In this document: positions 416 through 35,122 of the stretch, piece after piece
Layout of the letters: each line of letters opens with the position of its first letter
Position numbering within the stretch: position 1 is the stretch's first letter
DNA from: a virus
Lineage: Duplodnaviria > Heunggongvirae > Uroviricota > Caudoviricetes
Strand: one strand, 5' to 3'
Virus record (IMG/VR): IMGVR_UViG_3300045988_180316
DNA length: 37,769 nucleotides
The notes under the pieces: generated by a model
Databases searched by the model: none
The model's input: the letters and a program-made list of their open reading frames with translations, nothing else
Told to the model about the DNA's origin: nothing
Position numbers and translations under genes: made by a program

Positions 416-1579
416 ATGACTGCAAAAGAAATTGATTTTTTGAGCTCGCGTGAAATAGTAGGTTTCACGCTGCCTGTGTTGCATACCAAGGGCGGTTACT
501 GGTATGTTGACTTTACTGCCTTTGACCCTGTCTCGGGTCGGATGAAGCGCAAGAAGTACATGCTTAATAGGTACAAGACAGACCACAAGAAGCGTATGAT
601 GGGTACCTTGCTTATCCACAATATCACGGCAAAATTGACCGCTGGCTGGAATCCTTGGGTGAATGCCGACAAGTCGAGACAATTCACTGAAATACCAATT
701 ATCTTTAGTCGTTATCGTGATTATATTAAGTCGATGACCGACAAAAAGTCGATGAAGGAAAAGACCTCTATCGACTACCTCAGCCGCCTCAAGACTCTGG
801 AGTCTTTTATCTCTGAGTGCAAGAGTGTCAAATATGCCTATCAGATTGACCGTGCCTTTGCCATCGACTTCTTAGACCACCTGATGTATGACCGTGATGT
901 GAGTGCTACCACAAGAAACAACTATCGCTCTTGGCTTGTGTCCTTCGGCACTTGGCTTATGGATAGAAAATATATCAGCGAGAACCCTGCCATCGACATC
1001 AGAAACATCGCTCAGAAGGAGAAGTTCAGAGACCCTTTGACCGAGGGCGCACTTAAGAAGCTGAAGACTTATCTCTATGATAACAACAGACATTTTCTCT
1101 TGGCTTGCCTCTTTGAATATTATACCTTTATCCGACCGAATGAGTTGACGCAGATAAGAATCAAAGATGTGTCGATTGCTGACCAGACGGTCTTTATCAG
1201 TTCTGCCATCAGCAAGAACCGTAAGGACGGACTTGTGGCATTGAACGATGAAATCTTGAAGCTCATGATAGAGCTGAAGATATTTGAGCATCCGGGACAT
1301 TGTTTTATCTTTGGCAAGGGTTTGAAGCCCGGAGAGGAAAGAGCACCTTATAATCAGCTGAGAGTGGAGTGGGGTAAGATGAGAGATGCGATTGGGTTTC
1401 CGAAGGAGTATCAGTTTTATAGCCTGAAGGACACTGGCATCAGGGATTTGGCGAACGCACAGGGTATCGTGGTCGCCAAGGATCAGGCACGCCACTCTGA
1501 TATATCTGTGACGAATCGATATATCAAGAACCAGATGAAAGTGAACGAGGAGACCAAGCACTTCAAAGGTGGGCTTTAG
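416..1579 (+). CDS. int: Tyrosine recombinase / phage integrase
   Basis: 387 aa. The C-terminal catalytic region reads ...YSLKDTGIRDLA...ARHSDISVTNRYI (box II His/Arg and nucleophile Tyr). The position next to a tRNA fits an integrase. Confidence 0.9.
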   Translation: MTAKEIDFLSSREIVGFTLPVLHTKGGYWYVDFTAFDPVSGRMKRKKYMLNRYKTDHKKRMMGTLLIHNITAKLTAGWNPWVNADKSRQFTEIPIIFSRYRDYIKSMTDKKSMKEKTSIDYLSRLKTLESFISECKSVKYAYQIDRAFAIDFLDHLMYDRDVSATTRNNYRSWLVSFGTWLMDRKYISENPAIDIRNIAQKEKFRDPLTEGALKKLKTYLYDNNRHFLLACLFEYYTFIRPNELTQIRIKDVSIADQTVFISSAISKNRKDGLVALNDEILKLMIELKIFEHPGHCFIFGKGLKPGEERAPYNQLRVEWGKMRDAIGFPKEYQFYSLKDTGIRDLANAQGIVVAKDQARHSDISVTNRYIKNQMKVNEETKHFKGGL

Positions 1580-10926: not shown

Positions 10927-12501
10927 TCACGTGAATTTATAGAACTTCTTTTTGAACTTATTGTGAAGCTCTGCGACCACGGTGGAGAAGGGTAGCTCGT
11001 CACGACAGAAGTCGTTGAGGGCTTGGTCTATCAAGATCTTGGAGCCTGTATAGAGGTAGTGCTCCTGAGGCTGCCATACCTCGGTGCCGTCTGGCTCCAG
11101 GTGGTCGATGATGCGATAGCGAAGGGAGAGGCGCTTCTTGGGTACCTCTTTGGTGACCATGTGGGTGGAGCCGTCCGGGGCGGTCTCCTCTTGCTGGATG
11201 GTCTCCTTCTCTATCACCGAGTCATCGACCTTGTAGTCTATCACTTGGACGAGGAACTTGTTCTCGTCCTGACCCTCACGGCAGATGATGTCCTCGATGG
11301 ACTGCTGCTGTGATTTCTCCATACCGTCAAAAGGCACGCGCGCACGGCGAGCCTTGACGAGTTTACCGAATCTTTCCATACCGATTTTCTTATATAAGTG
11401 TTTTGAGTTTGCGTGGATGCCCAGTCCTAGGCGAGAGGCTGCCTTGATCTGTATCTGACGGTCTGTGAAGCCCGCCTTGCGTAAGTTGGCAATCTGTTTG
11501 CAGAGGTCGTGCTTGAACCGCTTGCGCAGCAGGGCGTGGTCAGCGTAGATGATCTGACCGCAGAAGTCGATGCCATCGCAGGTGCGGTGGATACCCCAAG
11601 ACTTATTGATGGATAGGTGCCAGTCACGGGCGAGGTGCATCACGGCAAGCTCTGCCATCAGCCTGAGGAACACCTTATCCTCGTGGAGGATGTAGATGTT
11701 GTCCATGAAGCGGTAATAATGGCGAAGACCTTGGCGGCAGAAGCGCTCGAACCTATCGTTGAGCGACTTCACCCCCCCACATAGCAGCTGAGCTTGCTGC
11801 TGAGTGCGACAGGTAACGAGCATGTCGCTCACGTAGCGAGCCTGCCAGTAACGGAACTTGTCGGTGTCTTGGAGAATGTCGAAGCATCGGAGTGCCAGGT
11901 AATCGAAGCGGGCGAGGAAGAGCTGACCCAAGAGTTGGGCGAGCTTGACGCCGAGCACGATGCCTGGATTGAAGCTATCGACCACCTCGTCGATGAAGGC
12001 GAGGAGCTTGCGGTCTTTGATCTTGCGGCGATATTCACTTTTGAGAAGAGCGTGGTCTATGCTCTGAAAATAATGGTGAATATCCATGGGCAAGCAGTAG
12101 AAGGTATCTTGCTGTGGCGAGTTGAAGATGTCTCGCTTGACAAGATTATAGAAATAATGGGTGCCCTTGCCCTTGGAACCAGCCGGACTGTGGCTGTAGA
12201 GTGTCTTGCGAAGGTTATCCTCTACAGGTTGCAGGGCAGCGTGCTGGATGACGTGGTCGATAACGGGCAGCTTGTTGACTTGGCGATGTTTTGGATAGTC
12301 GATATCTTTGGCGACATAGGCTGAGGTATGCCAAGTTTGTTGGGTGTAAGCATCGAGCATGCGTCCGATGTTATGGTCTAGGTTTGCCTCGAATTTTTGG
12401 ACCGCACGGCGAGACATCTTTTGTCGGGCGTAGTCATAGAATGCCCGACGAAAGTTGTCTAGTGTCTCGACCTGTGGCGATATGTTGCCAAACCTTTTCA
12501 T
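10927..12501 (-). CDS. DGR-type reverse transcriptase (atypical)
   Basis: 524 aa from ATG 12501. RT motifs: KLPVIDHVIQHAAL, SPAGSKGKGTH, CLPMDIHHYFQSIDH (motif A Asp), GIVLGVKLAQLLGQLFL (DGR-like motif B), YYRFMDNIYIL (motif C), IDFCGQIIY..LLRKRF. It lies next to a TR/VR pair. Confidence 0.88.
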   Translation of the reverse strand: MKRFGNISPQVETLDNFRRAFYDYARQKMSRRAVQKFEANLDHNIGRMLDAYTQQTWHTSAYVAKDIDYPKHRQVNKLPVIDHVIQHAALQPVEDNLRKTLYSHSPAGSKGKGTHYFYNLVKRDIFNSPQQDTFYCLPMDIHHYFQSIDHALLKSEYRRKIKDRKLLAFIDEVVDSFNPGIVLGVKLAQLLGQLFLARFDYLALRCFDILQDTDKFRYWQARYVSDMLVTCRTQQQAQLLCGGVKSLNDRFERFCRQGLRHYYRFMDNIYILHEDKVFLRLMAELAVMHLARDWHLSINKSWGIHRTCDGIDFCGQIIYADHALLRKRFKHDLCKQIANLRKAGFTDRQIQIKAASRLGLGIHANSKHLYKKIGMERFGKLVKARRARVPFDGMEKSQQQSIEDIICREGQDENKFLVQVIDYKVDDSVIEKETIQQEETAPDGSTHMVTKEVPKKRLSLRYRIIDHLEPDGTEVWQPQEHYLYTGSKILIDQALNDFCRDELPFSTVVAELHNKFKKKFYKFT

Positions 12502-12710
12502 AAGCGGTGTAATGTCTGTGTTGAACGGTGTATAAACTGTGTATAGTCTGAATCGTCTGCTTTTGTACACTTGATAACCTTCGACCGGATGACCGTGTTG
12601 TCATCATCTACCAGCTGTCTTATTGATGTGTATGTATCGCCATGGGGCGAGGATTGACCCTGTAATCTCGAAGTGGGAGCAAACGACCCACGAAGAGATA
12701 TGTCTGTAAG

Positions 12711-13069: not shown

Positions 13070-14542
13070 TTAGGCCGCCTCGTAATACACGGGTTCCACT
13101 GACCACTCGGATGCTGCTTCGCAGAGGGCGGCGCCGCAGTACACATAGGCAAGCGAGACAGCATCGCTCACGTCGCGCGTCGAAAGACCGCATTGACCAC
13201 CAACGTAAGCGCTAGCACCACGAAGGCAGACACGAAAACCGGATGTAGCGCCGCTATTATTCCAGAAATAGCTAGTCCAATAGGTTGACTCGGATGCGCC
13301 CGTGGCGGTCGGGAAGTTCTCCAGATGCTCCATCGAGAGCGTCTTGATAAAGCCTTCGCCCTTGGTCGGCGAGGTGCTGTAAGCCACCATGCCATCGGCG
13401 GAACCTATCGTCCACGTGCCGTAGATGGACGGTGCCACGAGATGGGTCACGGAAGTGTCTTCGTTGCATCGCACCTGCTCGTCATCCATGTGTCGCCACA
13501 ACGAGCCGAAGCCATTTTTGTAGCCGAAGAAGGATGGTATCTTGGCGGTATAGACCACGGTGCCATCGTCTTTTTTGACCTCGTAGCTTGCCTCGCCACA
13601 AGCGTCGCCCAGCTCGATGCCGGCAGACATCGGCACGACAGGGCGATAGCCGTTGTAACCACCCCAATCAGGCATCTGTGTCACGCCAGCTCCGAGACCA
13701 CCCTGGTAGAGACCGTTGGCATCTTTTTGGCTGTTGACGGCATCCTGGTCGTAGTGGGTGCCGAAGATGACCCCGAAGAGCACGGCGATGGCAGAGGTGT
13801 GGCGCATGGTGGTGCAGAGCCAGCCTGTGCCGTTTTTGCGGGCAGCGGCACGCCAGTATTCGGTAGTCTGGTTGGTGGCAGCCTTGCCCAGCATGGTGCG
13901 GTTGGTGTTATCTAACGTTGAGTCGTTGTTGCCGCCTCGGTAGTCTGTGCCCTCGTTGATGTAACTCACCAGCTTGCCTGTGCTGCGCTCTAGCGTGGCG
14001 AAGCCAGCGGCGGAGATGCTGCCAACAGGTATCTTGTAGTTGTACTCGCCTGGTATCGGCGTAGGGCTGACCATCTCGTAATGGAGTCTGCCCACGGTCT
14101 TGATGACCATGTACCACTCCTTGCCCCAGCCCCACTGGTAGTGCCCCTCTGAGCCGTCGAGCTTGGCTGTCTCGCCGGTGGCATACTTGTAATGGTCTTT
14201 GGAGTCGAGCTTGCGACGGGAGTGGTCATTCTTGACTAGGTAGCAGCCCAGACCCAGCTCCGCTGGTAGGGTCTGCAGTAACTCCAGCGAGCCCACATAA
14301 GTGGCGGCCTTAGGGGTTGCATTGTCGAGGTTCCACACTCGACCACACCAAGGATGCTGTCCCATCTGGACGGCGCTTTTGAGCGACATCTGCTCAGACC
14401 TGCCAGACTTTTTGTCGAAGACCTCGACAATCTTGTCTGTGGCGCTCATGTCTGACTGTGGGAGGTCGTCAACCTGTTGACCTCCATCGAAAGCGGCTAT
14501 GATAGCCTTGAGCTTACTCTCTTCTTCTGATGTTAATGCCAT
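13070..14542 (-). CDS. DGR target: receptor-binding/tail-fibre-tip protein with a C-type-lectin-fold variable C-terminus
   Basis: 490 aa from ATG 14542 (MALTSEEESKL...); the track start at 14755 overlaps the upstream gene. The C-terminus reads ...GFRVCLRGASAYVGGQCGLSTRDVSDAVSLAYVYCGAAL. Confidence 0.85.
   Translation of the reverse strand: MALTSEEESKLKAIIAAFDGGQQVDDLPQSDMSATDKIVEVFDKKSGRSEQMSLKSAVQMGQHPWCGRVWNLDNATPKAATYVGSLELLQTLPAELGLGCYLVKNDHSRRKLDSKDHYKYATGETAKLDGSEGHYQWGWGKEWYMVIKTVGRLHYEMVSPTPIPGEYNYKIPVGSISAAGFATLERSTGKLVSYINEGTDYRGGNNDSTLDNTNRTMLGKAATNQTTEYWRAAARKNGTGWLCTTMRHTSAIAVLFGVIFGTHYDQDAVNSQKDANGLYQGGLGAGVTQMPDWGGYNGYRPVVPMSAGIELGDACGEASYEVKKDDGTVVYTAKIPSFFGYKNGFGSLWRHMDDEQVRCNEDTSVTHLVAPSIYGTWTIGSADGMVAYSTSPTKGEGFIKTLSMEHLENFPTATGASESTYWTSYFWNNSGATSGFRVCLRGASAYVGGQCGLSTRDVSDAVSLAYVYCGAALCEAASEWSVEPVYYEAA
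13122..13242 (-). repeat. DGR variable repeat (VR)
   Basis: It lies inside the 3' end of the target gene. It shows 15 mismatches to the TR, and 14 of them fall at TR adenines on the coding strand. Confidence 0.9.
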
Positions 14543-14564
14543 AATAAAAAATGTATTTAATCGA

Positions 14565-15329
14565 TTAAACAATGCGTAATTTATCACCAACTTTTCTAAG
14601 CTTGCTCGATGCCGACAGGCGAAGGCGAGGCTGGCGTACGGTGATGCTGACCTCTTGCCAGAGCGGTGTGTTGGCGGTGGGGATGACCCAGAACTTGGTG
14701 ATGCCCTCGCCCTTGATGGTGAGGTTGCCGCTTGGGTCTGCCACGAGCGAGTCACCCTCGGCTCGCTGGAAGAGCACGCTCTGTGGGAGGTAGCTCGGCA
14801 GGATCTGCACGGCGATGCGCTGAGCCACCTTGTTGCGCAGGCTTATCTCGGGGAGATAGGCCAGGTTCATGCGAGCTGGCGCGATGAAGCCTGTGGCTAT
14901 CTGAGCGGCGAGACCATCCATCTGCGCTATCTTGGCATCGGCTCGCTTGGATGCCGCGTCTGCCTCTGCAGCCTTGGTCTCTGCCAAGGCTGCCTGTGAT
15001 GCTGCCGCCTCGCCCTGCTCGCCAGCCGCCTTGGCTGCGCTCTGGGCGAGGTTAGCCGCCTTGTTGGCATCGTCGGCCGCACCCTGCGCTCTGACGGTCG
15101 GTGTCTTGTCGAGCCACAAGCGCCACTTGGCGTTGGTATCTGAAGGAGTCGTCGTGTTGCCATCCTCTAGGGAGGCGAAGACTCCTGACGATGTGTGAAC
15201 GATGTCGCCCTCGTCGTAGCCCTTGACGGTCTGGCCATCCTCATCTTGATAGGAGTAGCCCGACTGCCAGGTGCCCTGGTCGGTGAAGGCGACATTGCCC
15301 ACGACAATGATGTTTGTGTTATCTGCCAT
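14565..15329 (-). CDS. Tail fibre component with an Ala-rich coiled coil and a C-terminal Ig-like (Big_2-like) domain
   Basis: 254 aa with an AAxxA-rich helical middle. The C-terminus ...VQILPSYLPQSVLF...NLTIKGEGITKFWVIP...VSITV resembles bacterial Ig-like folds. Confidence 0.5.
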   Translation of the reverse strand: MADNTNIIVVGNVAFTDQGTWQSGYSYQDEDGQTVKGYDEGDIVHTSSGVFASLEDGNTTTPSDTNAKWRLWLDKTPTVRAQGAADDANKAANLAQSAAKAAGEQGEAAASQAALAETKAAEADAASKRADAKIAQMDGLAAQIATGFIAPARMNLAYLPEISLRNKVAQRIAVQILPSYLPQSVLFQRAEGDSLVADPSGNLTIKGEGITKFWVIPTANTPLWQEVSITVRQPRLRLSASSKLRKVGDKLRIV

Positions 15330-25810: not shown

Positions 25811-26134
25811 TCATAATGGACTGCGCACGCCGTATTCCAGCTCCCAGACGAGACGACCACCACTTGGGCAAATCAGCTTGTAGCCATGTGCGACCATGTA
25901 TTCTGTAATGGTGGAGACGGAGGCTGTCACGATGTCTTTGATGTCGTCTTGTATCTCTTTTGATGTCATGACCTCTATCGGACCATCGCGCTCATCGGTT
26001 GGCGGGCGGTAGCCTTGGAAATAGGCATCGAGCGCCATATTGACGTAATCGACCTTAGTCTCTGGCTCTGGTGGTACAGCCGGGATGTCGGCTGTCACGT
26101 TGAAGCCCATGATGCGTTTGCGATTGTTGCTCAT
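25811..26134 (-). CDS. Hypothetical phage protein
   Basis: 107-aa ORF with an ATGA overlap with the upstream gene. Confidence 0.6.
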   Translation of the reverse strand: MSNNRKRIMGFNVTADIPAVPPEPETKVDYVNMALDAYFQGYRPPTDERDGPIEVMTSKEIQDDIKDIVTASVSTITEYMVAHGYKLICPSGGRLVWELEYGVRSPL

Positions 26135-26400
26135 GCCTCACCTCCTTTCGCCTCCAGGGCAATGTTGATGGTCTTGAAGAGCTTGCTCATGTGGTCGAAG
26201 TTATTGAGCATGAGCAGCACCCTGTCGGCACCGCCGAGGTCTTCGACGCAGTTGGTCACCACCTCGTCGGAGATGAGTACCTTTTTGACTTGCTCAAGGT
26301 ACTCGATGAAGTAGTTGAGCTGGTTGACATCCATCATATCTACGAGCGCATTCCAGACCTCTGCTGTCATGTGTATGTTTGTTGCGTTGTTTGTGTTCAT
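26131..26400 (-). CDS. Hypothetical phage protein
   Basis: 89-aa ORF with an ATGA overlap. Confidence 0.6.
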   Translation of the reverse strand: MNTNNATNIHMTAEVWNALVDMMDVNQLNYFIEYLEQVKKVLISDEVVTNCVEDLGGADRVLLMLNNFDHMSKLFKTINIALEAKGGEA

Positions 26401-26660
26401 GCTGCAATTCCTCCCATCAGATAACCACCAGCAATCATCACTACCGCGAAGCAGGCTATGCCCACCATGGTCAATGCCACCTCGCCATAAGTAACCGTCT
26501 CTTCGCAGAGGTAGCTGAAGGTCTCGCTCCTGGTAGCCATGAGGCGCTTAGCCTCACGCTTGATTGCACACTTGAGGGATTTCATTCCCTCGTTCACATT
26601 CACGTGGATGCCGGCAGGCTTAGCCTGCATCGCATCATTTAATAAAATAGAATTCTGCAT
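26397..26660 (-). CDS. Small protein with a C-terminal TM helix
   Basis: 87 aa ending ...VALTMVGIACFAVVMIAGGYLMGGIAA. ATG 26660 lies 4 nt after repeat element E3. Confidence 0.55.
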   Translation of the reverse strand: MQNSILLNDAMQAKPAGIHVNVNEGMKSLKCAIKREAKRLMATRSETFSYLCEETVTYGEVALTMVGIACFAVVMIAGGYLMGGIAA

Positions 26661-26664
26661 ATTG

Positions 26665-26680
26665 CATCATCTGTTAAGCA
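26665..26680 (-). repeat. Element E3 (RNA: UGCUUAACAGAUGAUG), abuts the start codon
   Basis: Perfect 16-nt reverse complement of 26732-26747. Confidence 0.8.
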
Positions 26681-26712
26681 TTAGCAGCCAACTTGATTTC
26701 GTGAGAAAAGGG

Positions 26713-26795
26713 TGGCGGCTGCATTCCCCGTTGCTTAACAGATGATGACTTATCCGAGAGGACTAATCAAAAATCTACGGTTCATGCAGCCGCCA
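26713..26795 (-). repeat. 12-bp perfect inverted repeat enclosing E2
   Basis: TGGCGGCTGCAT (26713-26724) pairs with ATGCAGCCGCCA (26784-26795). Confidence 0.8.
26732..26747 (-). repeat. Element E2 (RNA: CAUCAUCUGUUAAGCA)
   Basis: Complementary to both E3 (16 nt) and E1 (14 nt). Confidence 0.8.
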
Positions 26796-26844
26796 TATTG
26801 GTACACCTTTTTCCCGTTGCCGGGAAAATGATACTCTTGGGCAT

Positions 26845-26875
26845 AAAAAAAGCCTGCGGCTGAGAAGCCATAGGC
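26845..26875 (-). terminator. Intrinsic terminator inside the leader
   Basis: Minus strand reads GCCUAUGGCU-UCUC-AGCCGCAGGC (9 of 10 pairs) followed by U7. It lies about 45-70 nt after the predicted TSS. Confidence 0.6.
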
Positions 26876-26904
26876 GAAACGGTCGCCCTGCCGGATAGAT
26901 TACT

Positions 26905-26918
26905 ATCATCTGTTAAGC
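26905..26918 (-). repeat. Element E1 (RNA: GCUUAACAGAUGAU), at the predicted 5' end of the transcript
   Basis: 14-nt direct repeat of 26666-26679. Confidence 0.8.
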
Positions 26919-26923
26919 GTTGG

Positions 26924-26955
26924 CAAAGGTAAGAAGAAAATCCGGAACCGCCAAA
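26924..26955 (-). promoter_or_regulatory. Full Bacteroidota promoter (-33 TTTG, 20-nt spacer, -7 TAccTTTG)
   Basis: Plus CAAAGGTA at 26924-26931 and CAAA at 26952-26955. The -33 box is formed by the end of the upstream terminator's U-run. Confidence 0.6.
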
Positions 26956-26984
26956 AAAAAAGCGAGAAATTTTCATTCCTCGCT
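26952..26984 (-). terminator. Rho-independent terminator of the secreted-protein gene
   Basis: Minus strand reads AGCGAG-(12 nt)-CUCGCU followed by U9. Confidence 0.7.
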
Positions 26985-27017
26985 CAATTTTATTTTCAAA
27001 ACATGTTTAATAACATA

Positions 27018-27416
27018 TTATTGCTCATCTTTGGTAATTAACCCTGCTCGAATCTCATCATCGTTCTTCACTCTCTTCACCAGAACATAGTGGAGAACAG
27101 CCCTGCCGGCACCCTCTGTTATATAATATGTCTTGTCAAGTTTCCAACCTTTCTTAGCCATATAATTCACGGCTGCCATGACGGTATTGAACTTGATCTG
27201 TTTGCCATCCTCACCATATAAGCTCTCGAAAGAACCTCCACCATTGGAGACTGCACCCATATCAAGCATGACCTTCACTTTGCCGACGCCCCAAAAGTTA
27301 TATGCCTTGAGGTCGCAATAAACCGGATACTTACCATCCTCAGACTGGATGGTGCTCTGCGCTCTAGCGCCAATAGCCATAAAAATGATGGCCATCATAA
27401 CTAAAAACCTTTTCAT
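27018..27416 (-). CDS. Small secreted protein (signal peptide), moron
   Basis: 132 aa. MKRFLVMMAIIFMAIGARA-QS is an SPase I-type signal with no lipobox Cys. The gene has its own -7 box and terminator. Confidence 0.7.
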   Translation of the reverse strand: MKRFLVMMAIIFMAIGARAQSTIQSEDGKYPVYCDLKAYNFWGVGKVKVMLDMGAVSNGGGSFESLYGEDGKQIKFNTVMAAVNYMAKKGWKLDKTYYITEGAGRAVLHYVLVKRVKNDDEIRAGLITKDEQ

Positions 27417-27443
27417 TTTTTAATGTTTAAATTTAAATCGATA

Positions 27444-27451
27444 CAAAAATA
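27444..27451 (-). promoter_or_regulatory. -7 box (TAttTTTG)
   Basis: Plus CAAAAATA lies 28 nt upstream of ATG 27416. Confidence 0.4.
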
Positions 27452-27544
27452 ACAATAAAATATTAGTTATTCTAACCATTTTATCTGTATTTATATAAAA
27501 TCTGCTGGAAATATGTTGTAGAGCATAAAAACGAGGGACTTTGG

Positions 27545-27581
27545 GAAGAAAAAAGCCCCGATGCATCACGCACCGGGGCTT
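27545..27581 (-). terminator. Rho-independent terminator after hicB
   Basis: 8-bp stem AAGCCCCG (27553-27560) / CGGGGCTT (27574-27581) followed by a U-run on the minus strand. Confidence 0.65.
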
Positions 27582-27647
27582 CTAAAGCGATCTTTTAATT
27601 TTTAATTGCATGAAGTACAATCGGCATGAAGCCGATCGAACTGTTCT

Positions 27648-28073
27648 TTAAACATACTGTAGAACTGGTCTATCTATCAAGAGTCCAGTATCTATATCTC
27701 CTTTAACTTTTGCTATACCTTGTCTAATTTTCTCCAAGCTTTTGCCTTGTGGTACCTTGATGCCTGCTGCATATTGTCGAAGCAACGAGGCGTTCATGCC
27801 GATATACTTGGCGAAGGCTGAGATACTTAGAGGATAGTAGTTGAAAAATGCCCCAACATCGAAGACGAAGTGAAACTCCAAGTCTGGGTACTCCTTACCT
27901 TCCTCCTCATAGAATTCTCTCATTTCCTTATCTGCAATGAGGAAATCTTCCATAGCAGCCTTTGCGGTCTTGCCGTCACCAATAAGGCCAAACGTCAAGT
28001 CATCAGTCCCAGTCATGAAGCAAGAATATAAATCCTTGCCAGACTCCACTACAACAGTAACTTTTCTTGCCAT
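27648..28073 (-). CDS. hicB: HicB-family antitoxin (N-terminal HicB fold plus C-terminal HTH)
   Basis: 141 aa: MARKVTVVVESGKDLYSCFMTG...TAKAAMEDF... with a C-terminal HTH-like ISAFAKYIGMNASLLRQYAAG. It lies downstream of hicA. Confidence 0.75.
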   Translation of the reverse strand: MARKVTVVVESGKDLYSCFMTGTDDLTFGLIGDGKTAKAAMEDFLIADKEMREFYEEEGKEYPDLEFHFVFDVGAFFNYYPLSISAFAKYIGMNASLLRQYAAGIKVPQGKSLEKIRQGIAKVKGDIDTGLLIDRPVLQYV

Positions 28074-28149
28074 ATCTTTCTATATATAAAGTTCATAATC
28101 AAAAGTGTCCTTCTTGCATACCAAGAAAATCATGGAAGAAGAACCTGGG

Positions 28150-28332
28150 CTAAAGCCCAAGTTCTTGATAGATAGATTTCAGAGTGCGAATATTCACCTC
28201 TTCAGTTCCATGCCGAGGAACGGCAGTGCTCTTCCCATTGGCTGGGTTGAACCAAATGTCGTGTCGGCCTCCATGACGAAGTAGAAAGCATCCCGCTTTC
28301 TTTAACTTCCGATACAGTTCACTGTATTTCAT
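28150..28332 (-). CDS. hicA: HicA-family mRNA interferase toxin
   Basis: 60 aa from ATG 28332: MKYSELYRKLKKAGCFLLRHGGRHDIWFNPANGKSTAVPRHGTEEVNIRTLKSIYQELGL, the typical HicA pattern. The track start at 28407 lies upstream of the promoter. Confidence 0.85.
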   Translation of the reverse strand: MKYSELYRKLKKAGCFLLRHGGRHDIWFNPANGKSTAVPRHGTEEVNIRTLKSIYQELGL

Positions 28333-28376
28333 AATCTCAGTATGTTTAAAGAACACTTTGTCCTTATTGGACGATG

Positions 28377-28408
28377 CAAAGGTAACAATAAAGTTATAAA
28401 TAACCAAA
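28377..28408 (-). promoter_or_regulatory. Full Bacteroidota promoter for hicAB
   Basis: Plus CAAAGGTA at 28377-28384 and CAAA at 28405-28408, with a 20-nt spacer. Confidence 0.6.
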
Positions 28409-28530
28409 TATTTCGGTAACTATTTTGTTATATTACCTAAGATTTAACATTTATACATAAAGATAAGCGATGTCCCTACCTCTTTTAGGCTCTTGCCAGA
28501 CCGCTTTCGCCGCTAGGCGAAAAATTTTCA

Positions 28531-28561
28531 GAAAAATAGGGAAGGTCGAAAAACCTTCCCT
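28531..28561 (-). terminator. Rho-independent terminator after radC
   Basis: 9-bp stem AGGGAAGGT (28538-28546) / ACCTTCCCT (28553-28561) followed by a U-run on the minus strand. Confidence 0.7.
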
Positions 28562-28576
28562 TGTACCTATTATATA

Positions 28577-29263
28577 TTATAGCTTTCCCTTGTCGTGGTA
28601 GCTGTAGAAGCCATCCTCGGCTAAGATGATGTGGTCCATCAAGAAGAGTCTCATCACCTCGCACGCCTTGGCTATCTTCTGCGTGAGCATATCGTCCGCC
28701 TTGCTCGGCTGCGTGCTGTTCGATGGGTGGTTGTGCGCCACGGCGATGATGGTTGCGTTGTTGAGCACGGCTTCTTTCATTATCAGCCTTATGTCCACCG
28801 CTGTGTCGGTGATGCCTCCCTCGCTGAGCTTCACACTCTTTATCAGTCTGAAGTTTTGGTTCATCAGCACTACCCAAAAGCCCTCTGTCTCATTGCTTCC
28901 CATCATCGGGCGAAGATAGTTGTAGAGTGCTAGGCTGCTGCCTAGGTCGGTATTACGTGCCACCTTTTCCATTTGGTAGCGTCTGCCTAGCTCGATGGCT
29001 GCCTGTAGGGCTATCGCCTTGCAGTCGCCGATGCCTGGTACCACCTCTAGGTCTTCGATTCTCGCCTTGCCGATATTGCGAAGTGAGTTGTCCATGATGT
29101 TATAAATCTGTCGTGCCTGCTCTTGGCTGTCCTTGGTACCTGCCCCTCTGTTGATTACCAAAGAAATCAAGTCAACGTTGGTTAGGGTGTCGAAGCCTTG
29201 GTTATAGGCTCTGTACTGCGGTCTCTCCTCCATACAAAGGTCGTTATAATTTTGTCGTATCAT
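28577..29263 (-). CDS. radC: RadC-like JAB/MPN-domain protein
   Basis: 228 aa with an HhH-like GIGDCKAIALQAAIELGRR and a JAMM motif ...ATIIAVAHNHPSNSTQPSKADDMLT.... Confidence 0.85.
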   Translation of the reverse strand: MIRQNYNDLCMEERPQYRAYNQGFDTLTNVDLISLVINRGAGTKDSQEQARQIYNIMDNSLRNIGKARIEDLEVVPGIGDCKAIALQAAIELGRRYQMEKVARNTDLGSSLALYNYLRPMMGSNETEGFWVVLMNQNFRLIKSVKLSEGGITDTAVDIRLIMKEAVLNNATIIAVAHNHPSNSTQPSKADDMLTQKIAKACEVMRLFLMDHIILAEDGFYSYHDKGKL

Positions 29264-29279
29264 AGCTATATTGTTTTAA

Positions 29280-29804
29280 TTAGTTATACATTCTCTTGGT
29301 TCTCGCTAGGAACATCGCTCCCATCACTTGTGCGCCACATTCTGCTAGCTCGTTGGCGAACTCTCGGGCGGTCGCACCGCTTGTCACCACATCGTCGAAG
29401 ATGATGACTTTCTTTCCGTTGAAATACTCTCTATCGAGTGCCACTCTGTAGTCGAAGCTCTCGCACACTCTGTCGGCGCTGAAGTGCTTTGCCGTGCGCT
29501 CGCCATAGATGGAAATGTGCTCGCTTCCGTTCTGTACCTTTGCGCCTTGGCTCACCTTTTGGGCGAAGCGAGAAAAGCGCTTGTTGTACTTCTTGGAGTT
29601 GGCTGCTGGTGCGCATACCATCACGAAGTCGCTGGCTTTGTCGCCATAGGTGTTGACGAAAGAGCTGACCACCATATCGGCTGCGGCGTCTGTCGCCCAC
29701 TGCTTGCCATCCTTGAAAGCAAAGATGAAGTTTCTCACTTGCTCGGCTTGCGCTGAGCGGTCGAAACGCTTGGAGTTGTACTCGTAATAATTGAAAGTTT
29801 TCAT
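29280..29804 (-). CDS. ComF-like phosphoribosyltransferase (type I PRTase domain)
   Basis: 174 aa with the PRPP-binding loop GKKVIIFDDVVTSGATAREF. It lacks an N-terminal zinc finger. Its stop lies 16 nt upstream of the radC ATG. Confidence 0.75.
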   Translation of the reverse strand: MKTFNYYEYNSKRFDRSAQAEQVRNFIFAFKDGKQWATDAAADMVVSSFVNTYGDKASDFVMVCAPAANSKKYNKRFSRFAQKVSQGAKVQNGSEHISIYGERTAKHFSADRVCESFDYRVALDREYFNGKKVIIFDDVVTSGATAREFANELAECGAQVMGAMFLARTKRMYN

Positions 29805-30596
29805 ACGCTCAAAATTTTTATTCTAGCCAGAGGGAGGAAGGAGCTTTTTGTTTGAACTCGTCTTTGCCTGCCCGTCTGAGAGTTTTTTTTATTCTGTCCG
29901 TCGGTCGTTTTTGTCGCTTTTTACGGTGCGATGCAGACGAGCGGAGAAGAGGTATGAAAGCCAAGGAATTTTGCAAAAAGTTTATGGAAAACCGCCATCT
30001 CTGATTGCGGAAGGCTGCCGAAAAGTTTTTGGAAAATAGATTTATCGGTACTTGGTGCATACCATCCGCCGTACCTTTGCACCCGAAAAAGAGATAATGA
30101 CCGATGGATAACCGATAAAGGGAAAAGCTCTCGGACAGGAAAAGCGGGCAAAGAAAAGGCTCTGCCTTACCTTGGTGGTTAAGCCTTAGCGACGTTTGAG
30201 CGCCATCACGGTCACCACCGCTTGAAAATTCGCAAATTTTAACCCTAGCGTATGAAATGAAAGATGGAAAATTTGCGTCATCAAAAACACCATGTTTTTC
30301 AGACTTCAGGAGGAAAAACATACCTTGGAGCGATGAAATCGCAGCATTTGGCAGGCTTCGACCCCGAGGTTGAAGATGCCAAATGTGTCGTTTTACGACA
30401 GGTTTTCCACACCCACGGATTGGAAAACCCCGATTTTATCGTGGTTTTAGGGATTCAAAGGGAAAATAATTCCCCTTTGTCGGCGATAGCACCCCCCACC
30501 GCCCTACGCCCGAGGGCGCCTTCCGCCCCCTTGGAAAAGACGGAATATGTAAAAGACCGTTAACGTTTTTGTAGGAATGTAAAAAGCCAAAAGGCA
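29805..30596. other. 0.8-kb region without convincing coding potential; GGAAAA/TGGAAAA motif array; candidate large ncRNA or protein-binding array
   Basis: Only junk-like ORFs occur here. GGAAAA appears 9 times on the plus strand (29986, 30031, 30121, 30138, 30266, 30312, 30422, 30461, 30533), and 5 of these extend to TGGAAAA. One inverted copy forms the 9-bp hairpin GGTTTTCCA-N11-TGGAAAACC (30401-30429). Confidence 0.45.
30072..30079 (+). promoter_or_regulatory. Lone canonical -7 box (TAccTTTG) on the plus strand within the non-coding region
   Basis: TACCTTTG at 30072-30079. No good -33 box is present, and no minus-strand -7 box occurs anywhere in 29805-30700. Confidence 0.3.
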
Positions 30597-30633
30597 CGAA
30601 AAAAGGGAACACGCTTCGCAGCGCACTCCCCTT
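30597..30633 (-). terminator. Rho-independent terminator after terL
   Basis: Minus strand reads AAGGGGA..CGCU-GCGA(GNRA)-AGCG..UUCCCUU followed by U6. One pair is G-U only on the minus strand. Confidence 0.6.
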
Positions 30634-30701
30634 ATCGGCGGTCAAGCAAGAATGCCAGCCACCTAACTTATATAAGAATCGTACTATCTAAAGAAATCAA
30701 A

Positions 30702-32303
30702 CTATAGCATGGAACCCGTGGCGATGTAGCCATCAGCCTGAGGGTATTTCTCCATGCCAATCATGAGCGTGTCGTAGGCATCGGAGCCATCGGTGCGAGC
30801 CTCCAACTTATCCTCCTCGGTCTCTGCCAGCTTCTCGCCTCGCTTATCCTTCTTGCCGTTGTAGACCCCGGCCAGGCGGATGGAGATGAGCAGGTCTTCG
30901 TTGTTCTCGCTGTTGATCATCGAGCGATGCTCAGCCTTGCCGAGGAACATGCGGTTGAGCAGAAGCATCTTTTCGAGATGTCCCATCGGGTTGCCCAGAT
31001 AGACCTCGTTGACATACCAGCCATGGTCGGTGAGGTAGTCGGTGATGAAGGTATGGAAGTCATCGTTCATCAGGGCGTAGTTGTTGCCCACGAAGGTGGA
31101 GTCGTAGTAGAAGTTGACCTCCTTGCACCGATGGTACTCATAGTACTGCATGAACTTGTCGAGCAGGGCGGGCAGCTTCTCCTCATACTTCACGAAGATG
31201 CTCTTGAGGCAGCGTGCCTCGCCCCGCAGGTTGTCTTGTCCGACGGCTATCCAGTTGATGAGGGCGTTGGCATCGAAGGCGATGCAGAGCGGACGGTCGG
31301 GGTCAACGTCGGCATCCATTCTGGAATCTACATGCTTGAGCTTGTCGATGTCGTAGCCTAAGCCATCGAGGTAGGCGAGGTTGGGCGCCGTGTATAGGTT
31401 GGCATCCCTGAGGTTGGAGTAGAAGCCATCGAGCGAGATGGAAGGCCGCTTGCACATGATGGAGGTCTGGAAGGTGAGGGCAGGGAGGTCTCGCTTCATC
31501 TGCTTGATGAACTCCATGCCGAGCACCTCGATGTTATAGACCGATGAGTACTCTTTATAGAAGAGTGCCTTGGAGCGCAGTTGCGCCAGGAGCTGACCAA
31601 TCTCTCGGAGTCGGCGCTGGGCATAGCCTGAGACATGGCCCGAGGTCTTGATGCGGTTGCGTATGTCATACTCCTCTACCACGAGCGAGGCGATGGCGTC
31701 GATGAGCAGCTGGTCGCAGTCTTTCTTGTAGTTGAGGAACCAGGAGCCCTTCTTGGTCACGGGCATATCAGAGGTGATGAGCATGCCATGGTGGTAGTAG
31801 TGCTGGCCGAAGAGGTTGACGTTGCCTCGATTGGCAGGGAAGGTCTCGTCTTTGAGCTGTTCGAAGTTGATGAACTTCGCCTCGTCGATGTCGAGGTAGT
31901 CGAGCGAGAGGGAGTTGGAGGTACCCTTGCGGTCTTGCGAGATGATGGTACCGATGGAGCCGTTATAGAAAGAGATGGTGTTCTCCCAGTTGCTGGGCGG
32001 TATGACCGGGTCGGGCCATCCCAGTTTTTTGGGAGGCTTGACCCCGATGAGATAATGCTTGCCCCGGTGGAAGCCCCATCGCTCCCAGTGCTGAAGCATC
32101 GACGGTATGGTGTTGGTGAGGCATCGCTTGGTGTTGGCGGATACGAAGCCGCCGTTGCTGCCAGGCATGCGCTGCATGTTGCGCAGGTTGAAGGTGGCGT
32201 GGAGAATGCTCTTGCCGATGCCTCGACCGCCCACGACCACGTTGTCGCGGGCGGAGATGAGGTTGACCTCCATCTGGGCTGGGTTGAGATATTGATCTAT
32301 CAT
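30702..32303 (-). CDS. terL: Terminase large subunit
   Basis: 533 aa with Walker A VVVGGRGIGKS, Walker B-like LDYLDIDEAKF and a C-terminal nuclease-sized domain. Confidence 0.88.
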   Translation of the reverse strand: MIDQYLNPAQMEVNLISARDNVVVGGRGIGKSILHATFNLRNMQRMPGSNGGFVSANTKRCLTNTIPSMLQHWERWGFHRGKHYLIGVKPPKKLGWPDPVIPPSNWENTISFYNGSIGTIISQDRKGTSNSLSLDYLDIDEAKFINFEQLKDETFPANRGNVNLFGQHYYHHGMLITSDMPVTKKGSWFLNYKKDCDQLLIDAIASLVVEEYDIRNRIKTSGHVSGYAQRRLREIGQLLAQLRSKALFYKEYSSVYNIEVLGMEFIKQMKRDLPALTFQTSIMCKRPSISLDGFYSNLRDANLYTAPNLAYLDGLGYDIDKLKHVDSRMDADVDPDRPLCIAFDANALINWIAVGQDNLRGEARCLKSIFVKYEEKLPALLDKFMQYYEYHRCKEVNFYYDSTFVGNNYALMNDDFHTFITDYLTDHGWYVNEVYLGNPMGHLEKMLLLNRMFLGKAEHRSMINSENNEDLLISIRLAGVYNGKKDKRGEKLAETEEDKLEARTDGSDAYDTLMIGMEKYPQADGYIATGSML

Positions 32304-32929
32304 AGTGCTTTGTCCTCCTTGACTTCTTCTGTAGGTGTATATTCCAAGAGCTGTTCGTCGTAGTCCTCGGCCTCGATCTTGACGAGATCCATGGAGTTGT
32401 CGGTGTATTTCTTGACGAGCTTCTTGATGGTCTGCATCACGTTAGGGATGCGCTTGAGACCCAAGTGTCGTGGGTCGGTGGTAGGGATGAAGACCTGAGG
32501 CTGAATCTGGTCGTAGCCGTTGTCGGTAGGATCCTCTTTGTCGAGCAGGTGATATTTGCCGTATGCCGCTGCGGCGGCAGCCATGGCCCGGGCATCGCCC
32601 ACGGAGTCGGCCTTGTCGTAGGTGCGCTGTATCATCTGGTCGAAGCGATAGCGGGCGAAGTCTTTTGACACTTTTTGCAGGTTGCCCAATATGAGCTTGA
32701 TGAGGTGCAGGTCGTTGTAAGCCATCATGCGCTGCACCTTGTAGTCGTGCATATCTTTATAGACCAGCTCTTGGTCGCTCTTGCGAGGGTTGATGAGCCA
32801 CCAGGCATAGAGGGCACGGATGCGCAAAATGCGGTCGCGCACTGGGGCGGGCACATTTTGCGCATCCATCTCTTCGGGTGTGCGGTCCATCAGTTCGATG
32901 ATGGCATCGATGTTGGCGGGTTCTCTCAT
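32300..32929 (-). CDS. Putative terminase small subunit / packaging accessory
   Basis: 209 aa, translationally coupled (ATGA) to terL. The call rests on position only. Confidence 0.4.
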   Translation of the reverse strand: MREPANIDAIIELMDRTPEEMDAQNVPAPVRDRILRIRALYAWWLINPRKSDQELVYKDMHDYKVQRMMAYNDLHLIKLILGNLQKVSKDFARYRFDQMIQRTYDKADSVGDARAMAAAAAAYGKYHLLDKEDPTDNGYDQIQPQVFIPTTDPRHLGLKRIPNVMQTIKKLVKKYTDNSMDLVKIEAEDYDEQLLEYTPTEEVKEDKAL

Positions 32930-33207
32930 ATTCTAATCTCCTCTAACATTTGGTTCAGATATTCGTGTGTGCGCTGCACCGCCTGTGGCGAGCCAGCCGC
33001 AGCCAGGTCTAGCTCGTTTTTGCGTATCTGCTGGCGCACCGTCGCCATGCCCAAGTAATAGACACGGTGAAGCTCGGAGTCGGGCTTCAGTATCTCGTCA
33101 CGCAGATCGTCCTCGCTAATATCCAAAAGGACGGACATCTCGGATATCGGAGTCAACGTCTCCGCGAAGTCTTGCACTTTTTTGAGTAATTCCTGAGAAA
33201 TTTCCAT
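32926..33207 (-). CDS. Small HTH-like protein in the packaging operon
   Basis: 93 aa. TPISEMSVLLDISEDDLRDEI resembles an HTH. The start has an ATGA overlap with the downstream gene. Confidence 0.45.
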   Translation of the reverse strand: MEISQELLKKVQDFAETLTPISEMSVLLDISEDDLRDEILKPDSELHRVYYLGMATVRQQIRKNELDLAAAGSPQAVQRTHEYLNQMLEEIRI

Positions 33208-33691
33208 TGATTCTTAAGCTTTGAGTGTCACAATGTAGGGTATATCCGCCGAAGAGGTCGGCGAAGACCTGCGGGTCGGTGGTGATGATGGTTGACTCGT
33301 CTCGGCTGCCATAGGTCTGGTTTTGCGAGGTGACGACCGACACGACGTGCTGGTCGTTGCGGAAGAGTGTCACCTTGGAGTGGTTTTGCCCCAGGAACAC
33401 ATCGTCGAAGCAGGTCTGCATCATGCGCCACAGCTGCACGGTCTTCTTGCTCGCCTTGACATCGAGCAGCATCGTTGCCGACAGGATGCTGCCCGACTGG
33501 CGCATCAGGCGGAAGCCACGCAGGAACTCCTCGGAGGTGGAGTAGGAAGACACCCACACATCTGCAGGACCTATCTGGGAGAGAATCCACTTGATGAGAC
33601 CGAGGGTGTGGAGGTGTCGCCCGAAGTAGGCTTGCGTCTGGGCATCGGCGATGGGACGGAGCAGGTCACTGACCTTGACCTTGGTCGGCAT
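33116..33691 (-). CDS. HKD (phospholipase-D superfamily) nuclease-like protein
   Basis: 191 aa. NHSKVTLFRNDQHVVSVVTSQNQT resembles a single HxK...(G/T)SxN motif. The 3' end overlaps the next gene by 92 nt. Confidence 0.4.
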   Translation of the reverse strand: MPTKVKVSDLLRPIADAQTQAYFGRHLHTLGLIKWILSQIGPADVWVSSYSTSEEFLRGFRLMRQSGSILSATMLLDVKASKKTVQLWRMMQTCFDDVFLGQNHSKVTLFRNDQHVVSVVTSQNQTYGSRDESTIITTDPQVFADLFGGYTLHCDTQSLRINGNFSGITQKSARLRGDVDSDIRDVRPFGY

Positions 33692-34409
33692 TGGCGGCTA
33701 GCTTAGCCTTGGCTACACGGTCACGGTCGGCAGTGGTGACCTGGTATGAGTCGTAGGTGAGCATGTCGGCACGATAGCGCTTGTCGAGGTCGGAGAGTAT
33801 CTTGAGAAGCTCGTATCTGTCGCATGGCTCCTGGTGCTCCATCGTCTTGAGCGTCTCGAAGGTGGATTTAATCTGCTTGTATCGCTTGGCGTTGGCATCC
33901 CAGAGAGCGGCAACCTCGGCAGGAAGAAACTCATGGTCGCTGCGCTTGCCCTTGCGGATGACCGCCACGCCATCGCTCTCGGAGGAAGGAAGCTCGGCAT
34001 CATCGGTCGAGCCATCATCGTCGATGGAATCGGCATTTTTTGCGATTTCATTGCCATTTTCGTCGGTTTCATCGGTCTTTTTGGTCGTTTTCTCGGTCGT
34101 ATCGGTCGTTTCTTCGGTCGTTGCCACAGGTACGCCCTCACTGATGATGGCTTGCGCCTCTGGTATGACGATGGCATCCATCTGCTTGACCTCTTCGATG
34201 GTCATGCCATCGAGACGAATCTTCAGGAACTTATTCAGCTCATACTCAATGTTGGAACGATAAGCCTGTGGCTGTCGGGTGGCACGAGCATGGTAGAAGC
34301 GATTGCGGTTGAGACGGAAGAGCATGCCTGCGCCCTTGATGATGTCAGCGTCGCTCTCGTGCTTGGCATTGAGCCACGCCTGTATCTGTTTGGTGAATTG
34401 ATGATCCAT
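33666..34409 (-). CDS. Hypothetical protein with an acidic T/E/D-rich linker
   Basis: 247 aa from ATG 34409 (MDHQFTKQIQAWL...). The track start at 34649 overlaps the upstream gene and its terminator. Confidence 0.6.
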   Translation of the reverse strand: MDHQFTKQIQAWLNAKHESDADIIKGAGMLFRLNRNRFYHARATRQPQAYRSNIEYELNKFLKIRLDGMTIEEVKQMDAIVIPEAQAIISEGVPVATTEETTDTTEKTTKKTDETDENGNEIAKNADSIDDDGSTDDAELPSSESDGVAVIRKGKRSDHEFLPAEVAALWDANAKRYKQIKSTFETLKTMEHQEPCDRYELLKILSDLDKRYRADMLTYDSYQVTTADRDRVAKAKLAANADQGQGQ

Positions 34410-34525: not shown

Positions 34526-35122
34526 TTATGCCGCCACCCATACAGAGCCATCGGCACCGCTGATGTCTCCGGACTCTGTCTCGATCTTGCCAGGATAGAA
34601 CGGTGTAGGGCAGAAGTCTGTCGCCTCGGTGTTGACGGTTGTGGTGCAAGCATCGGTCACGCCGCTGCCTGAAGCCTGGCTGACGGTAATCTTAGGAGCG
34701 AAAGCCTCGCAGCCGATGAGACGGGCACGACCCTTGCGGTCTTGCACCATCATGATGAGTTCGTCGTTGATAGCCATGGTAGCGAAGCCACTGATGTCCT
34801 CGTCGGTACCACCGACCACGAACTCGCCCTTGTTGAGGAACGTAGCGGAAGGTGCCTCGCCCTGAGTCTCAGCTGTAAAATTGCTCTTGGCATCGACAAG
34901 GTCTAGGCTGTGCCACTTGGCATCGCTCGCCAATGTGAAGTCGCCCGTATATTGAGCGAGCTTGGCCGGGTCTGTGGTCTTGTCATCAGCTGCTGGCAAT
35001 GTTGGCCAAGTCAGGATCTGACTCTTGAGGATGAAGAATACACGAGGTTTAATGCCTGGGGCTATGCGAGCCCCAGGACATTTTTTGACTGATTTATATA
35101 AATCTTTTGTAGTACAAGCCAT
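34526..35122 (-). CDS. Abundant virion structural protein candidate (decoration or major tail)
   Basis: 198 aa, immediately after the capsid gene and followed by a terminator. No motif was recognised. Confidence 0.45.
   Translation of the reverse strand: MACTTKDLYKSVKKCPGARIAPGIKPRVFFILKSQILTWPTLPAADDKTTDPAKLAQYTGDFTLASDAKWHSLDLVDAKSNFTAETQGEAPSATFLNKGEFVVGGTDEDISGFATMAINDELIMMVQDRKGRARLIGCEAFAPKITVSQASGSGVTDACTTTVNTEATDFCPTPFYPGKIETESGDISGADGSVWVAA

Follow-up and report, generated by a model that had tools for sequence, protein, structure and literature searches.

The stretch of DNA analyzed here, hereafter the window, is the 37,769-nucleotide (nt) IMG/VR virus record IMGVR_UViG_3300045988_180316 (Caudoviricetes), in which a gene for an enzyme of the phospholipase D (PLD) superfamily is chained to the genes of the DNA-packaging terminase. 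This single-HKD PLD gene lies on the minus strand, as do all genes of the chain, and occupies an open reading frame (ORF) at 33116..33691 that starts with ATG and encodes 191 amino acids (aa). It is followed by a gene for a 93-aa helical protein with a helix-turn-helix (HTH)-like N-terminal motif (32926..33207), a gene for a 209-aa protein resembling a small terminase subunit (TerS; 32300..32929), and the gene for the 533-aa large terminase subunit (TerL; 30702..32303). The 92 nt at 33116-33207 are common to the PLD ORF and the 93-aa gene, which is read in the +1 frame relative to PLD and starts 92 nt ahead of the PLD end; the next two junctions are ATGA stop/start overlaps at 32926-32929 and 32300-32303, and an ORF upstream of PLD, with its stop at 33666, shares 26 nt with the PLD start. 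An initial annotation, made from the sequence alone, had described the PLD ORF and its 92-nt out-of-frame overlap accurately. Its proposal that the gene is translationally chained to an HTH protein, a putative terS and terL is likewise supported, the partners being an HTH-like protein, a TerS-like protein and a genuine TerL.

The segment NHSKVTLFRNDQHVVSVVTSQNQT, residues 103-126 of the 191-aa protein, had been compared in that annotation to the single HKD-type half-site of dimeric PLD-family nucleases, and the predicted fold, its structural neighbors, the invariant His, Lys, Asn and Glu residues and a profile alignment all agree with this resemblance. The catalytic motif N103-H104-S-K106 ... 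S122-x-N124 ... R130-x-E132 is encoded at 33296..33385 (minus strand) and was delimited by its invariance and by profile alignment. The elements N103-H104-S105-K106 and S122-Q-N-Q-T-Y-G-x-R-x-E132 show no variation across 36 homologues, and when 62 representatives that are 22-43% identical to the query are aligned, H104, K106, N124 and E132 are the sole invariant columns, with S122 and R130 nearly invariant. The eponymous Asp of the HxKx4D motif is not conserved in this family, as in several nuclease members of the superfamily. Judged by these alignments, the motif is not a chance match.

The score of the window protein against Pfam PLDc_2 is 13.6 bits (E = 0.059), short of the 27-bit cut-off, while half of the relatives (31/62) match at E <= 0.01, the best at E = 3.9e-6; by these scores, the family is a divergent branch that escapes the Pfam model. 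The window protein has no NCBIfam match, and it matches the PHROG 'endonuclease' family phrog_16945 with E = 3.8e-5, a match that reaches E = 2.6e-12 across the family. Against PDB sequences, neither the single protein nor a 36-sequence profile gave anything relevant or significant; the wider 62-sequence profile reaches Zucchini and SauUSI with E about 0.02, and its H-x-K, S-x-N and E line up with the catalytic motifs of SauUSI and mouse Zucchini. Homologues are numerous, comprising 267 clusters at 90% identity, 514 IMG/VR loci, 108 species genomes and 810 representatives at 50% identity. An AlphaFold2 model built from 36 homologues (predicted local distance difference test score, pLDDT, 82) has a compact alpha/beta domain at about residues 17-160 (33212..33643, minus strand) and a disordered tail at about residues 164-191. 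Its best structural neighbors are all single-domain or restriction-type nucleases, namely the SauUSI nuclease domain (score 13.4), Nuc (12.8), NucT (12.8), Zucchini (12.2), NgoAVII (12.0), and BfiI (10.9). The model thereby combines the PLD alpha/beta sandwich with the HxK..SxN..E motif, with one HKD half-site per domain of ~160 aa. Of the searches that the initial annotation had proposed, the single-protein comparison to Pfam stayed below its cut-off, and the fold and the wider-family profile supported the PLD assignment; the contrary outcome it had named, an absent PLD fold or variable catalytic His and Lys, was not seen, since the fold is present and H104 and K106 are invariant in the 62 relatives. 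The PLD-fold identity of the protein is solid, and from sequence conservation it is a divergent, single-HKD PLD enzyme with intact catalytic residues.

Public names for members of the family are misleading. P0096 and P0113 are called 'C4-dicarboxylate ABC transporter' in NCBI metagenome-assembled genome (MAG) records, and QXN68080.1, the PLD protein of cyanophage Mae-Yong924-1 (L181, 4848-5423), is misnamed 'polyphosphate kinase' both in its genome record and in the corresponding paper, where this protein, ORF44, is filed under regulation/replication (PMC8875630). The deposited name could be read in favor of a substrate other than DNA (e.g., phospholipid or polyphosphate), and the PLD fold does include lipid and polyphosphate enzymes, which appear at structural ranks 10-20; the position of the gene after the head genes would also suit a catalytically silent structural or head-associated protein. 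However, the best structural neighbors are all nucleases, and the minimal HKD unit of ~160 aa is like Nuc and Zucchini, without the N-terminal or head domains of polyphosphate kinase. In addition, the protein to which PLD is fused in some relatives is of an HTH-like, DNA-binding type, the window gene lies outside any lysis cassette, and the invariance of H, K, N and E speaks against a silent protein. A non-DNA enzyme or an inactive head protein is thus very improbable.

The TerL assignment rests on structure prediction and residue conservation. The AlphaFold2 model (pLDDT 84) contains ATPase and RuvC/RNase H-like nuclease domains, and Foldseek aligned it to the TerL proteins of D6E, Sf6 (gp2), HK97, T4 (gp17) and T7 with E values of 2e-12 to 2e-5, with the C-terminal domain matching RuvC. 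Across 30 homologues, no variation is seen in the Walker A motif G26-R-G-x-G-K31, in E141, or in the acidic residues D344, D401, D508 and D511. Searches of Pfam found no match and PHROG gave phrog_2 only, at E = 1e-4. Judged from these data, the protein is a genuine TerL that retains its own RuvC-like nuclease residues, and the PLD enzyme would therefore be an accessory to TerL, not a substitute. The possibility of a degenerate TerL nuclease replaced by PLD was ruled out by the four invariant Asp residues and the RuvC match. The TerL family is very widespread, with >3,800 homologues, and its members in records of Prevotella, Bacteroides, Alistipes, and Muribaculaceae share 55-60% identity; they are invariably called 'hypothetical protein', and the family was identified here through structure prediction alone.

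Neither of the two small proteins between PLD and TerL has a significant Pfam, PHROG or PDB match. The 209-aa protein, with its acidic C-terminus, is encoded directly upstream of terL and is kept in the cassette; its homologue search returned unnamed proteins only, and NCBIfam gave no match either. It is homologous to a 190-aa gene product encoded directly upstream of a Terminase_6N/6C TerL in locus L176 (hhalign 80%, E = 1.4e-5) and to ORF46 of Mae-Yong924-1 (hhalign 97%, E = 7e-11). Considering position and homology, this protein is the strongest candidate for TerS. The 93-aa protein, defined by its conservation and by natural fusions, carries an invariant (A)GSP motif and is conserved from Bacteroidales phages to ORF45 of the Microcystis phage (hhalign 98.8%, E = 6e-17). 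Its HTH-type matches (IS5376 transposase HTH, HTH_5, Sigma70_r3) are all sub-threshold, and 'HTH-like' is therefore used as a reasoned label. The depositors of Mae-Yong924-1 name its orthologue terminase small subunit, and 9 nt separate a PLD fusion that carries the 93-aa protein (P0226) from the terL gene downstream of it; in the window, the 209-aa protein separates the 93-aa gene from terL. A 134-aa gene in L176 has no detectable relation to the 93-aa family.

The cassette of PLD, ~93-aa HTH-like protein, ~205-aa protein and TerL recurs from Bacteroidales prophages to the cultured Microcystis cyanophage. A longer order, comprising protease, major capsid protein (MCP), ~200-aa protein, ~270-aa protein, PLD, ~93-aa protein, ~205-aa protein and TerL, is kept in many settings: at PLD identities of 47% (L002), 30% (L165, human fecal phage MT835542), and 24% (L166), in coral and other environmental metagenomes (marine L178; L179), and in loci collected with TerL as the seed (Muribaculaceae MAG L169; L170). 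The gene is thus conserved beside terS/terL across related phages, as would be expected of a terminase-associated accessory endonuclease. Such constancy also bears on the suggestion that PLD is a defense, counter-defense or selfish (homing-type) nuclease placed near the terminase by chance, as has been proposed for some terminase-adjacent HNH genes. PLD nuclease domains do occur in restriction and defense systems (SauUSI, NgoAVII, BfiI, DrmC), and in PADLOC, relatives of the window protein show weak similarity, at the level of motifs, to DrmC (E = 0.006) and REase_II (E = 0.011). None of the PADLOC families reached significance, however, and PLD behaves as a fixed-position core gene, vertically conserved with its neighbors from 98% to ~24% identity, which is the opposite of a mobile or accessory pattern. 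A chance placement of this kind is accordingly highly improbable.

Natural fusions tie PLD to the 93-aa protein specifically. In P0146 (282 aa), P0171 (291 aa), and P0226 (270 aa), the PLD domain is joined in frame, through a low-complexity linker, to a full 93-aa protein; the P0146 fusion is present in three independent assemblies, and such fusions occur in at least two lineages. At locus L172, the gene for P0226 precedes a TerL that is 44% identical to the window TerL, with an endolysin upstream in place of the head genes and with the 209-aa gene absent. The fusion stays by TerL amid different neighbors, and the PLD-partner unit therefore travels with TerL. A further arrangement is found in P0255 (L176, 3021-4325), a 434-aa tandem PLD duplication with two NHAKF...SANWN...E motifs, encoded two genes upstream of the portal and an unrelated, canonical Terminase_6N/6C TerL. 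The duplication is consistent with a two-domain active unit that would form a covalent 'dimer'. At this locus, P0255 comes after an HD-domain protein, and the portal is fused to 5'-3' exonuclease domains.

For the 92-nt overlap, the initial annotation had left three options, namely a dual-coding segment, read-through of a decayed stop, and a mis-set start of the downstream gene. The first stands, the second holds as an account of how the PLD tail originated, and the third is dropped. The shared segment (33116..33207, minus strand) encodes the disordered PLD tail (about residues 162-191) in frame A and the first 30 codons of the small protein in frame B (+1). An ATG is located exactly 89 nt ahead of the PLD stop in 40 of 52 unique viral loci, and in most of the others it lies 95-119 nt ahead (98-122 nt overlap); the -89 ATG is the sole start conserved across clades, whereas later in-frame ATGs come and go. 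The overlapped codons specify a conserved sequence, M-(E/D)-x-S-x-E-L-L-x-K-I-x-x-L-A-x-x-L-T-P-x-S-E-I-S-x-L-L-D, which is also found in distant relatives with a 4-nt overlap (L165, L166) and in the natural fusions. This conservation and these occurrences assign the 30 overlapped codons to the small protein. Codon-position entropy switches from PLD periodicity upstream to frame-B periodicity inside the overlap, and the small protein is therefore the dominant constraint there. In 82 unique loci, mean GC content falls to 0.31-0.38 from -30 to +30 around the small-gene ATG, compared to ~0.5 in the flanks. Initiation regions that are AT-rich and devoid of a Shine-Dalgarno sequence are known for Bacteroidota, and the dip fits such a region; in the window, it lies inside the PLD coding sequence at 33175..33237 (minus strand), with the ATG at 33205-33207. 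The conserved -89 ATG, the N-terminus it encodes (kept even in the 4-nt-overlap relatives) and the GC dip exclude a mis-set start of the small gene.

Conservation in relatives extends to the other frame. About 100 of 130 unique loci share the position of the PLD stop, and in 100 unique loci the tail ends in D-x-x-P-F-G-Y (D-V-R-P-F-G-Y in the window, 33119..33139, minus strand), with P retained in 80%, F in 85%, G in 93%, and Y in 88%. This C-terminal peptide marks the long-tail clade and is missing from short-tail lineages. The tail Pro is retained via CCT, CCG or CCA, although frame B varies among Leu, Arg and His at that position. Conversely, synonymous codons of frame B are frozen at L27, L28 and D29: TTG encodes Leu28 in 99 of 100 loci and GAT encodes Asp29 in 64 of 65, compared to entropies of 1.0-2.4 bits at other Leu codons of the small gene, and in tail-less lineages (nine loci, ~7 independent) the Leu and Asp codons vary (CTG, CTA, TTA, GAC). 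This codon usage suggests that both frames are constrained at the PFGY end.

The history of the tail can be read from its distribution. Proteins of the wider family are mostly 160-175 aa long, the Bacteroides and Phocaeicola versions having 166 aa and a 26-nt overlap, and a rough neighbor-joining tree rooted on L166 has a short ancestor, one gain of the tail and ~11 losses. Loci L049 and L050 (IMG/VR; PLD 77% identical), with a premature stop in the tail, an overlap of 47 nt as opposed to 92 nt, and an unchanged small gene, are recent examples of such loss. From these comparisons, the overlap is genuine dual coding in which the N-terminus of the small protein is the older and dominant reading, and the long PLD tail is derived, having arisen by read-through of an earlier stop in a Prevotellaceae-associated clade. 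Several observations might instead suggest an artefact, with the small gene starting later (e.g., at an ATG 20 nt ahead of the PLD stop) or the tail being a chance frame. One gene caller took a later ATG in L001 (70 aa), and two callers omitted the small gene (L003, L004); given the small-protein sequence, the PLD frame would stay open across the overlap with a probability of ~0.28 per lineage; and the tail is disordered, poorly conserved in its middle and repeatedly lost. These are outweighed by the cross-clade conservation of the -89 ATG alone, the presence of the N-terminal 30 residues in the 4-nt-overlap relatives and fusions, the GC dip at the initiation region, the shared PLD stop, the P-F-G-Y end kept through synonymous Pro codons, and the fixed Leu28 codon, as opposed to codons that vary freely at the remaining Leu positions and in lineages without the tail. 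An artefact is therefore scarcely credible. A programmed +1 frameshift joining PLD and the HTH-like protein was also considered and is unsupported: the A6 run at 33178-33183 is not conserved, and no slippery site is found at the PLD stop.

With the fold, conserved catalytic residues, synteny, fusions, TerL identity, and overlap conservation established, a mechanism can be proposed. The PLD protein would be a single-HKD phosphodiesterase, most probably an endonuclease acting on DNA, and by analogy with Nuc and Zucchini it may dimerize, with two H-K-N-E half-sites combining into a single metal-independent active site. Its 93-aa helical partner would supply DNA binding and work as a unit with it, a catalytic-plus-recognition design that resembles BfiI and NgoAVII. 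The pair is a standing companion of the terminase (the 209-aa TerS-like protein and TerL) and could make or assist a packaging-tied cut, such as pac/cos cleavage or concatemer processing, adding to the RuvC-like nuclease of TerL and not replacing it. In the long-tail clade, the acidic D-x-x-P-F-G-Y end of PLD might serve as a docking peptide. On balance, the PLD endonuclease and its small partner probably act with the terminase in a packaging-linked DNA cut, a reading of moderate confidence drawn from comparative genomics. Synteny across phyla and the PLD-HTH fusions make a packaging role, as an analogue of the HNH endonucleases discussed below, likely, and comparative genomics leaves it well motivated.

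A number of observations weigh against this reading. Both substrate and role are deduced, for every family member, from fold neighbors and gene order; the window protein falls short of the PLDc_2 threshold (13.6 vs. 27 bits) and has no significant PDB sequence match; and the HTH nature of its partner is based on sub-threshold matches. The cassette follows head genes in most lineages, such that co-expression alone could explain part of the synteny, and the long tail, lost ~11 times, is dispensable. The nuclease triad of TerL is complete, and an extra nuclease is not obviously required. Finally, in Arthrobacter phage Galaxy, a distant PLD relative annotated as 'NucT-like nuclease' adjoins a single-stranded DNA-binding protein gene in the replication module, with a separate HNH gene at the packaging slot; therefore, phage PLDs are not all packaging-linked. 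The last two observations, together with the non-specific nuclease activity of the structural neighbors Nuc and NucT, would agree with a general late DNA-processing nuclease, whether for debranching or resolving intermediates of replication and recombination ahead of packaging, as T4 endonuclease VII does, or for host-DNA degradation; such an enzyme would be no partner or component of the terminase, and its late-operon position would reflect timing. This alternative is unlikely: it does not account for the in-frame fusions to a terminase-cassette small protein in at least two lineages, for a fusion directly upstream of terL even where other neighbors differ, or for an association that spans two unrelated TerL families. 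A role in a packaging-linked cut thus remains preferred. A more specific version of it is tentative and somewhat doubtful, namely that PLD and its HTH-like partner constitute an unrecognized metal-independent, two-part and sometimes fused endonuclease of the packaging machinery that makes the sequence-directed initiation or termination cut, a step credited in textbooks to TerL or to TerL with HNH, with the overprinted PFGY peptide as a tether to the terminase complex. It would cover the phage lineage of Bacteroidota, Cyanobacteria and marine hosts, the tether applying to the Prevotellaceae-associated clade.

Between MCP and PLD, relatives keep a conserved pair of genes, represented in the window by 34526-35122 (minus strand, ~198 aa) and 33666-34409 (minus strand, ~247 aa from the ATG at 34409). 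The second of these is the ORF that shares 26 nt with the PLD start; its product has an acidic, coiled-coil-like middle, and the homologous slot encodes 219-273 aa in L001, L002, L145, L166, L169, and L170. No family match to either product was found in Pfam, PHROG or NCBIfam, and the array is kept in all relatives. On the other side of the cassette, the region at ~26000-30700, between terL and the next structural genes, has a GC content of 0.40-0.49, a reversed GC skew and accessory-type genes. This low-GC stretch includes a RadC-like protein (28577-29263) and a phosphoribosyltransferase-like protein (29280-29804), and ~900 nt at 29800-30700 are without a convincing ORF.

With its tRNA-Met, integrase, tape measure protein and diversity-generating retroelement, the window is a temperate prophage of siphovirus type from a Prevotella-type gut bacterium, the nearest host being Segatella copri (83% identity). 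The tRNA-Met (anticodon CAT, 224-299, plus strand) lies beside a tyrosine integrase gene (416-1579, plus strand; phrog_1, E = 5e-31), and the two probably represent the attachment site and the left prophage end. The retroelement comprises a reverse transcriptase (10927-12570, minus strand; phrog_1423, E = 1e-54), an Rfam RT-17 RNA at its 5' end (12553-12654, minus strand; 59 bits), and, just upstream, a tail protein (13070-14755, minus strand; phrog_5302) that is the likely target of mutagenesis.

Packaging in tailed phages is thought to rely on the RNase H/RuvC-like nuclease of TerL, aided by HNH endonucleases in some cos phages. PLD-fold nucleases, their phage copies ('NucT-like nuclease') and terminase-adjacent accessory nucleases (HNH) are already known. 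In the searched literature on PLD/HKD proteins with terminase or packaging, and on 'NucT-like' proteins, no PLD was found as a fixed member of a terminase cassette, nor a PLD fusion to a terminase-adjacent small protein, nor an overprinted tail. If the proposed role is correct, packaging would have a second, chemically different accessory solution, metal-independent and with a covalent intermediate, provided by a PLD that is firmly tied, across phyla, to the terminase cassette and has been joined repeatedly to a terminase-adjacent protein of DNA-binding type. The finding would also put right hundreds of annotations that are wrong or empty ('C4-dicarboxylate ABC transporter', 'polyphosphate kinase', 'hypothetical'). 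In gut and rumen, the family also marks a large and uncultured set of temperate phages of Prevotella, Segatella, Bacteroides, and Phocaeicola. The overlap, for its part, offers a clean natural case of overprinting, in which reading through an older HTH-coding start gave rise to a disordered tail whose end motif is conserved, with measurable codon constraint in both frames and repeated tail loss.

Among known systems, the closest likeness in enzyme type is to the single-HKD nucleases Nuc (Salmonella pKM101), NucT (Helicobacter pylori) and Zucchini/MitoPLD. In contrast to these, the window PLD shares only 10-15% identity with them and stays below the Pfam threshold; its gene belongs to a phage late operon and is chained to those of the terminase, the protein is served by a dedicated and sometimes fused small HTH-like partner, and in its clade it carries a 30-residue tail overprinted on the partner's gene. 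The restriction enzymes BfiI, NgoAVII and SauUSI likewise join a PLD nuclease domain to DNA-recognition or motor domains. The partner described here differs in being a ~93-aa helical, HTH-like protein, not B3-like or a helicase, and usually a separate polypeptide; its context is virion DNA packaging as opposed to host defense, and the cassette has no linked methyltransferase. For a viral PLD that acts on genome DNA, poxvirus K4, a virion nicking-joining enzyme of the PLD family, is a loose precedent.

Among phage proteins, the 'NucT-like nucleases' annotated in actinobacteriophages, namely Gordonia phage BetterKatz (gp1) and Arthrobacter phage Galaxy (gp53), belong to the same PLD family by sequence, with about 22% identity to the window PLD. 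Compared to L165, these genes give tblastn E values of 4e-7 to 7e-3; their H, K, N, R and E residues align, and they provide the top BFVD structural match (E = 5.5e-10). In BetterKatz, gene 1 encodes the nuclease and marks the left end of the genome, with terS/terL four genes further on; neither gene 4 nor TerS of this phage is homologous to the 93-aa or 209-aa partner in the window.

The HK97 gp74-type HNH proteins, which Kala et al. (2014, PNAS) reportedly described as accessory nucleases of cos phages adjoining terS/terL, provide the functional comparison. Like them, PLD is encoded by a small stand-alone nuclease gene beside the terminase genes in many phages, and by analogy it may be a helper in genome cutting despite the nuclease of TerL itself. 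The two differ in chemistry, HNH being a beta-beta-alpha-metal finger and PLD being predicted to use a metal-independent phospho-histidine mechanism, and in layout, since the window PLD comes after the head genes and is paired with an obligatory small protein. The fold being that of PLD, the protein would be a functional analogue of the HNH endonucleases that adjoin terS/terL (PMC3592412, PMC5304195) at most, and not a member of their family.

The nearest counterpart of the cassette as a whole is found in Mae-Yong924-1, in which protease and MCP are followed by ORF44 (PLD, 28% identity), ORF45 (93 aa), ORF46 (~190 aa), and ORF47 (TerL, 34% identity, E = 6e-91). It differs from the window in its 17-nt overlap between PLD and the small gene, in a PLD without the PFGY tail and in its cyanobacterial host. 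The presence of the same cassette in this cultured phage renders the packaging hypothesis directly testable.

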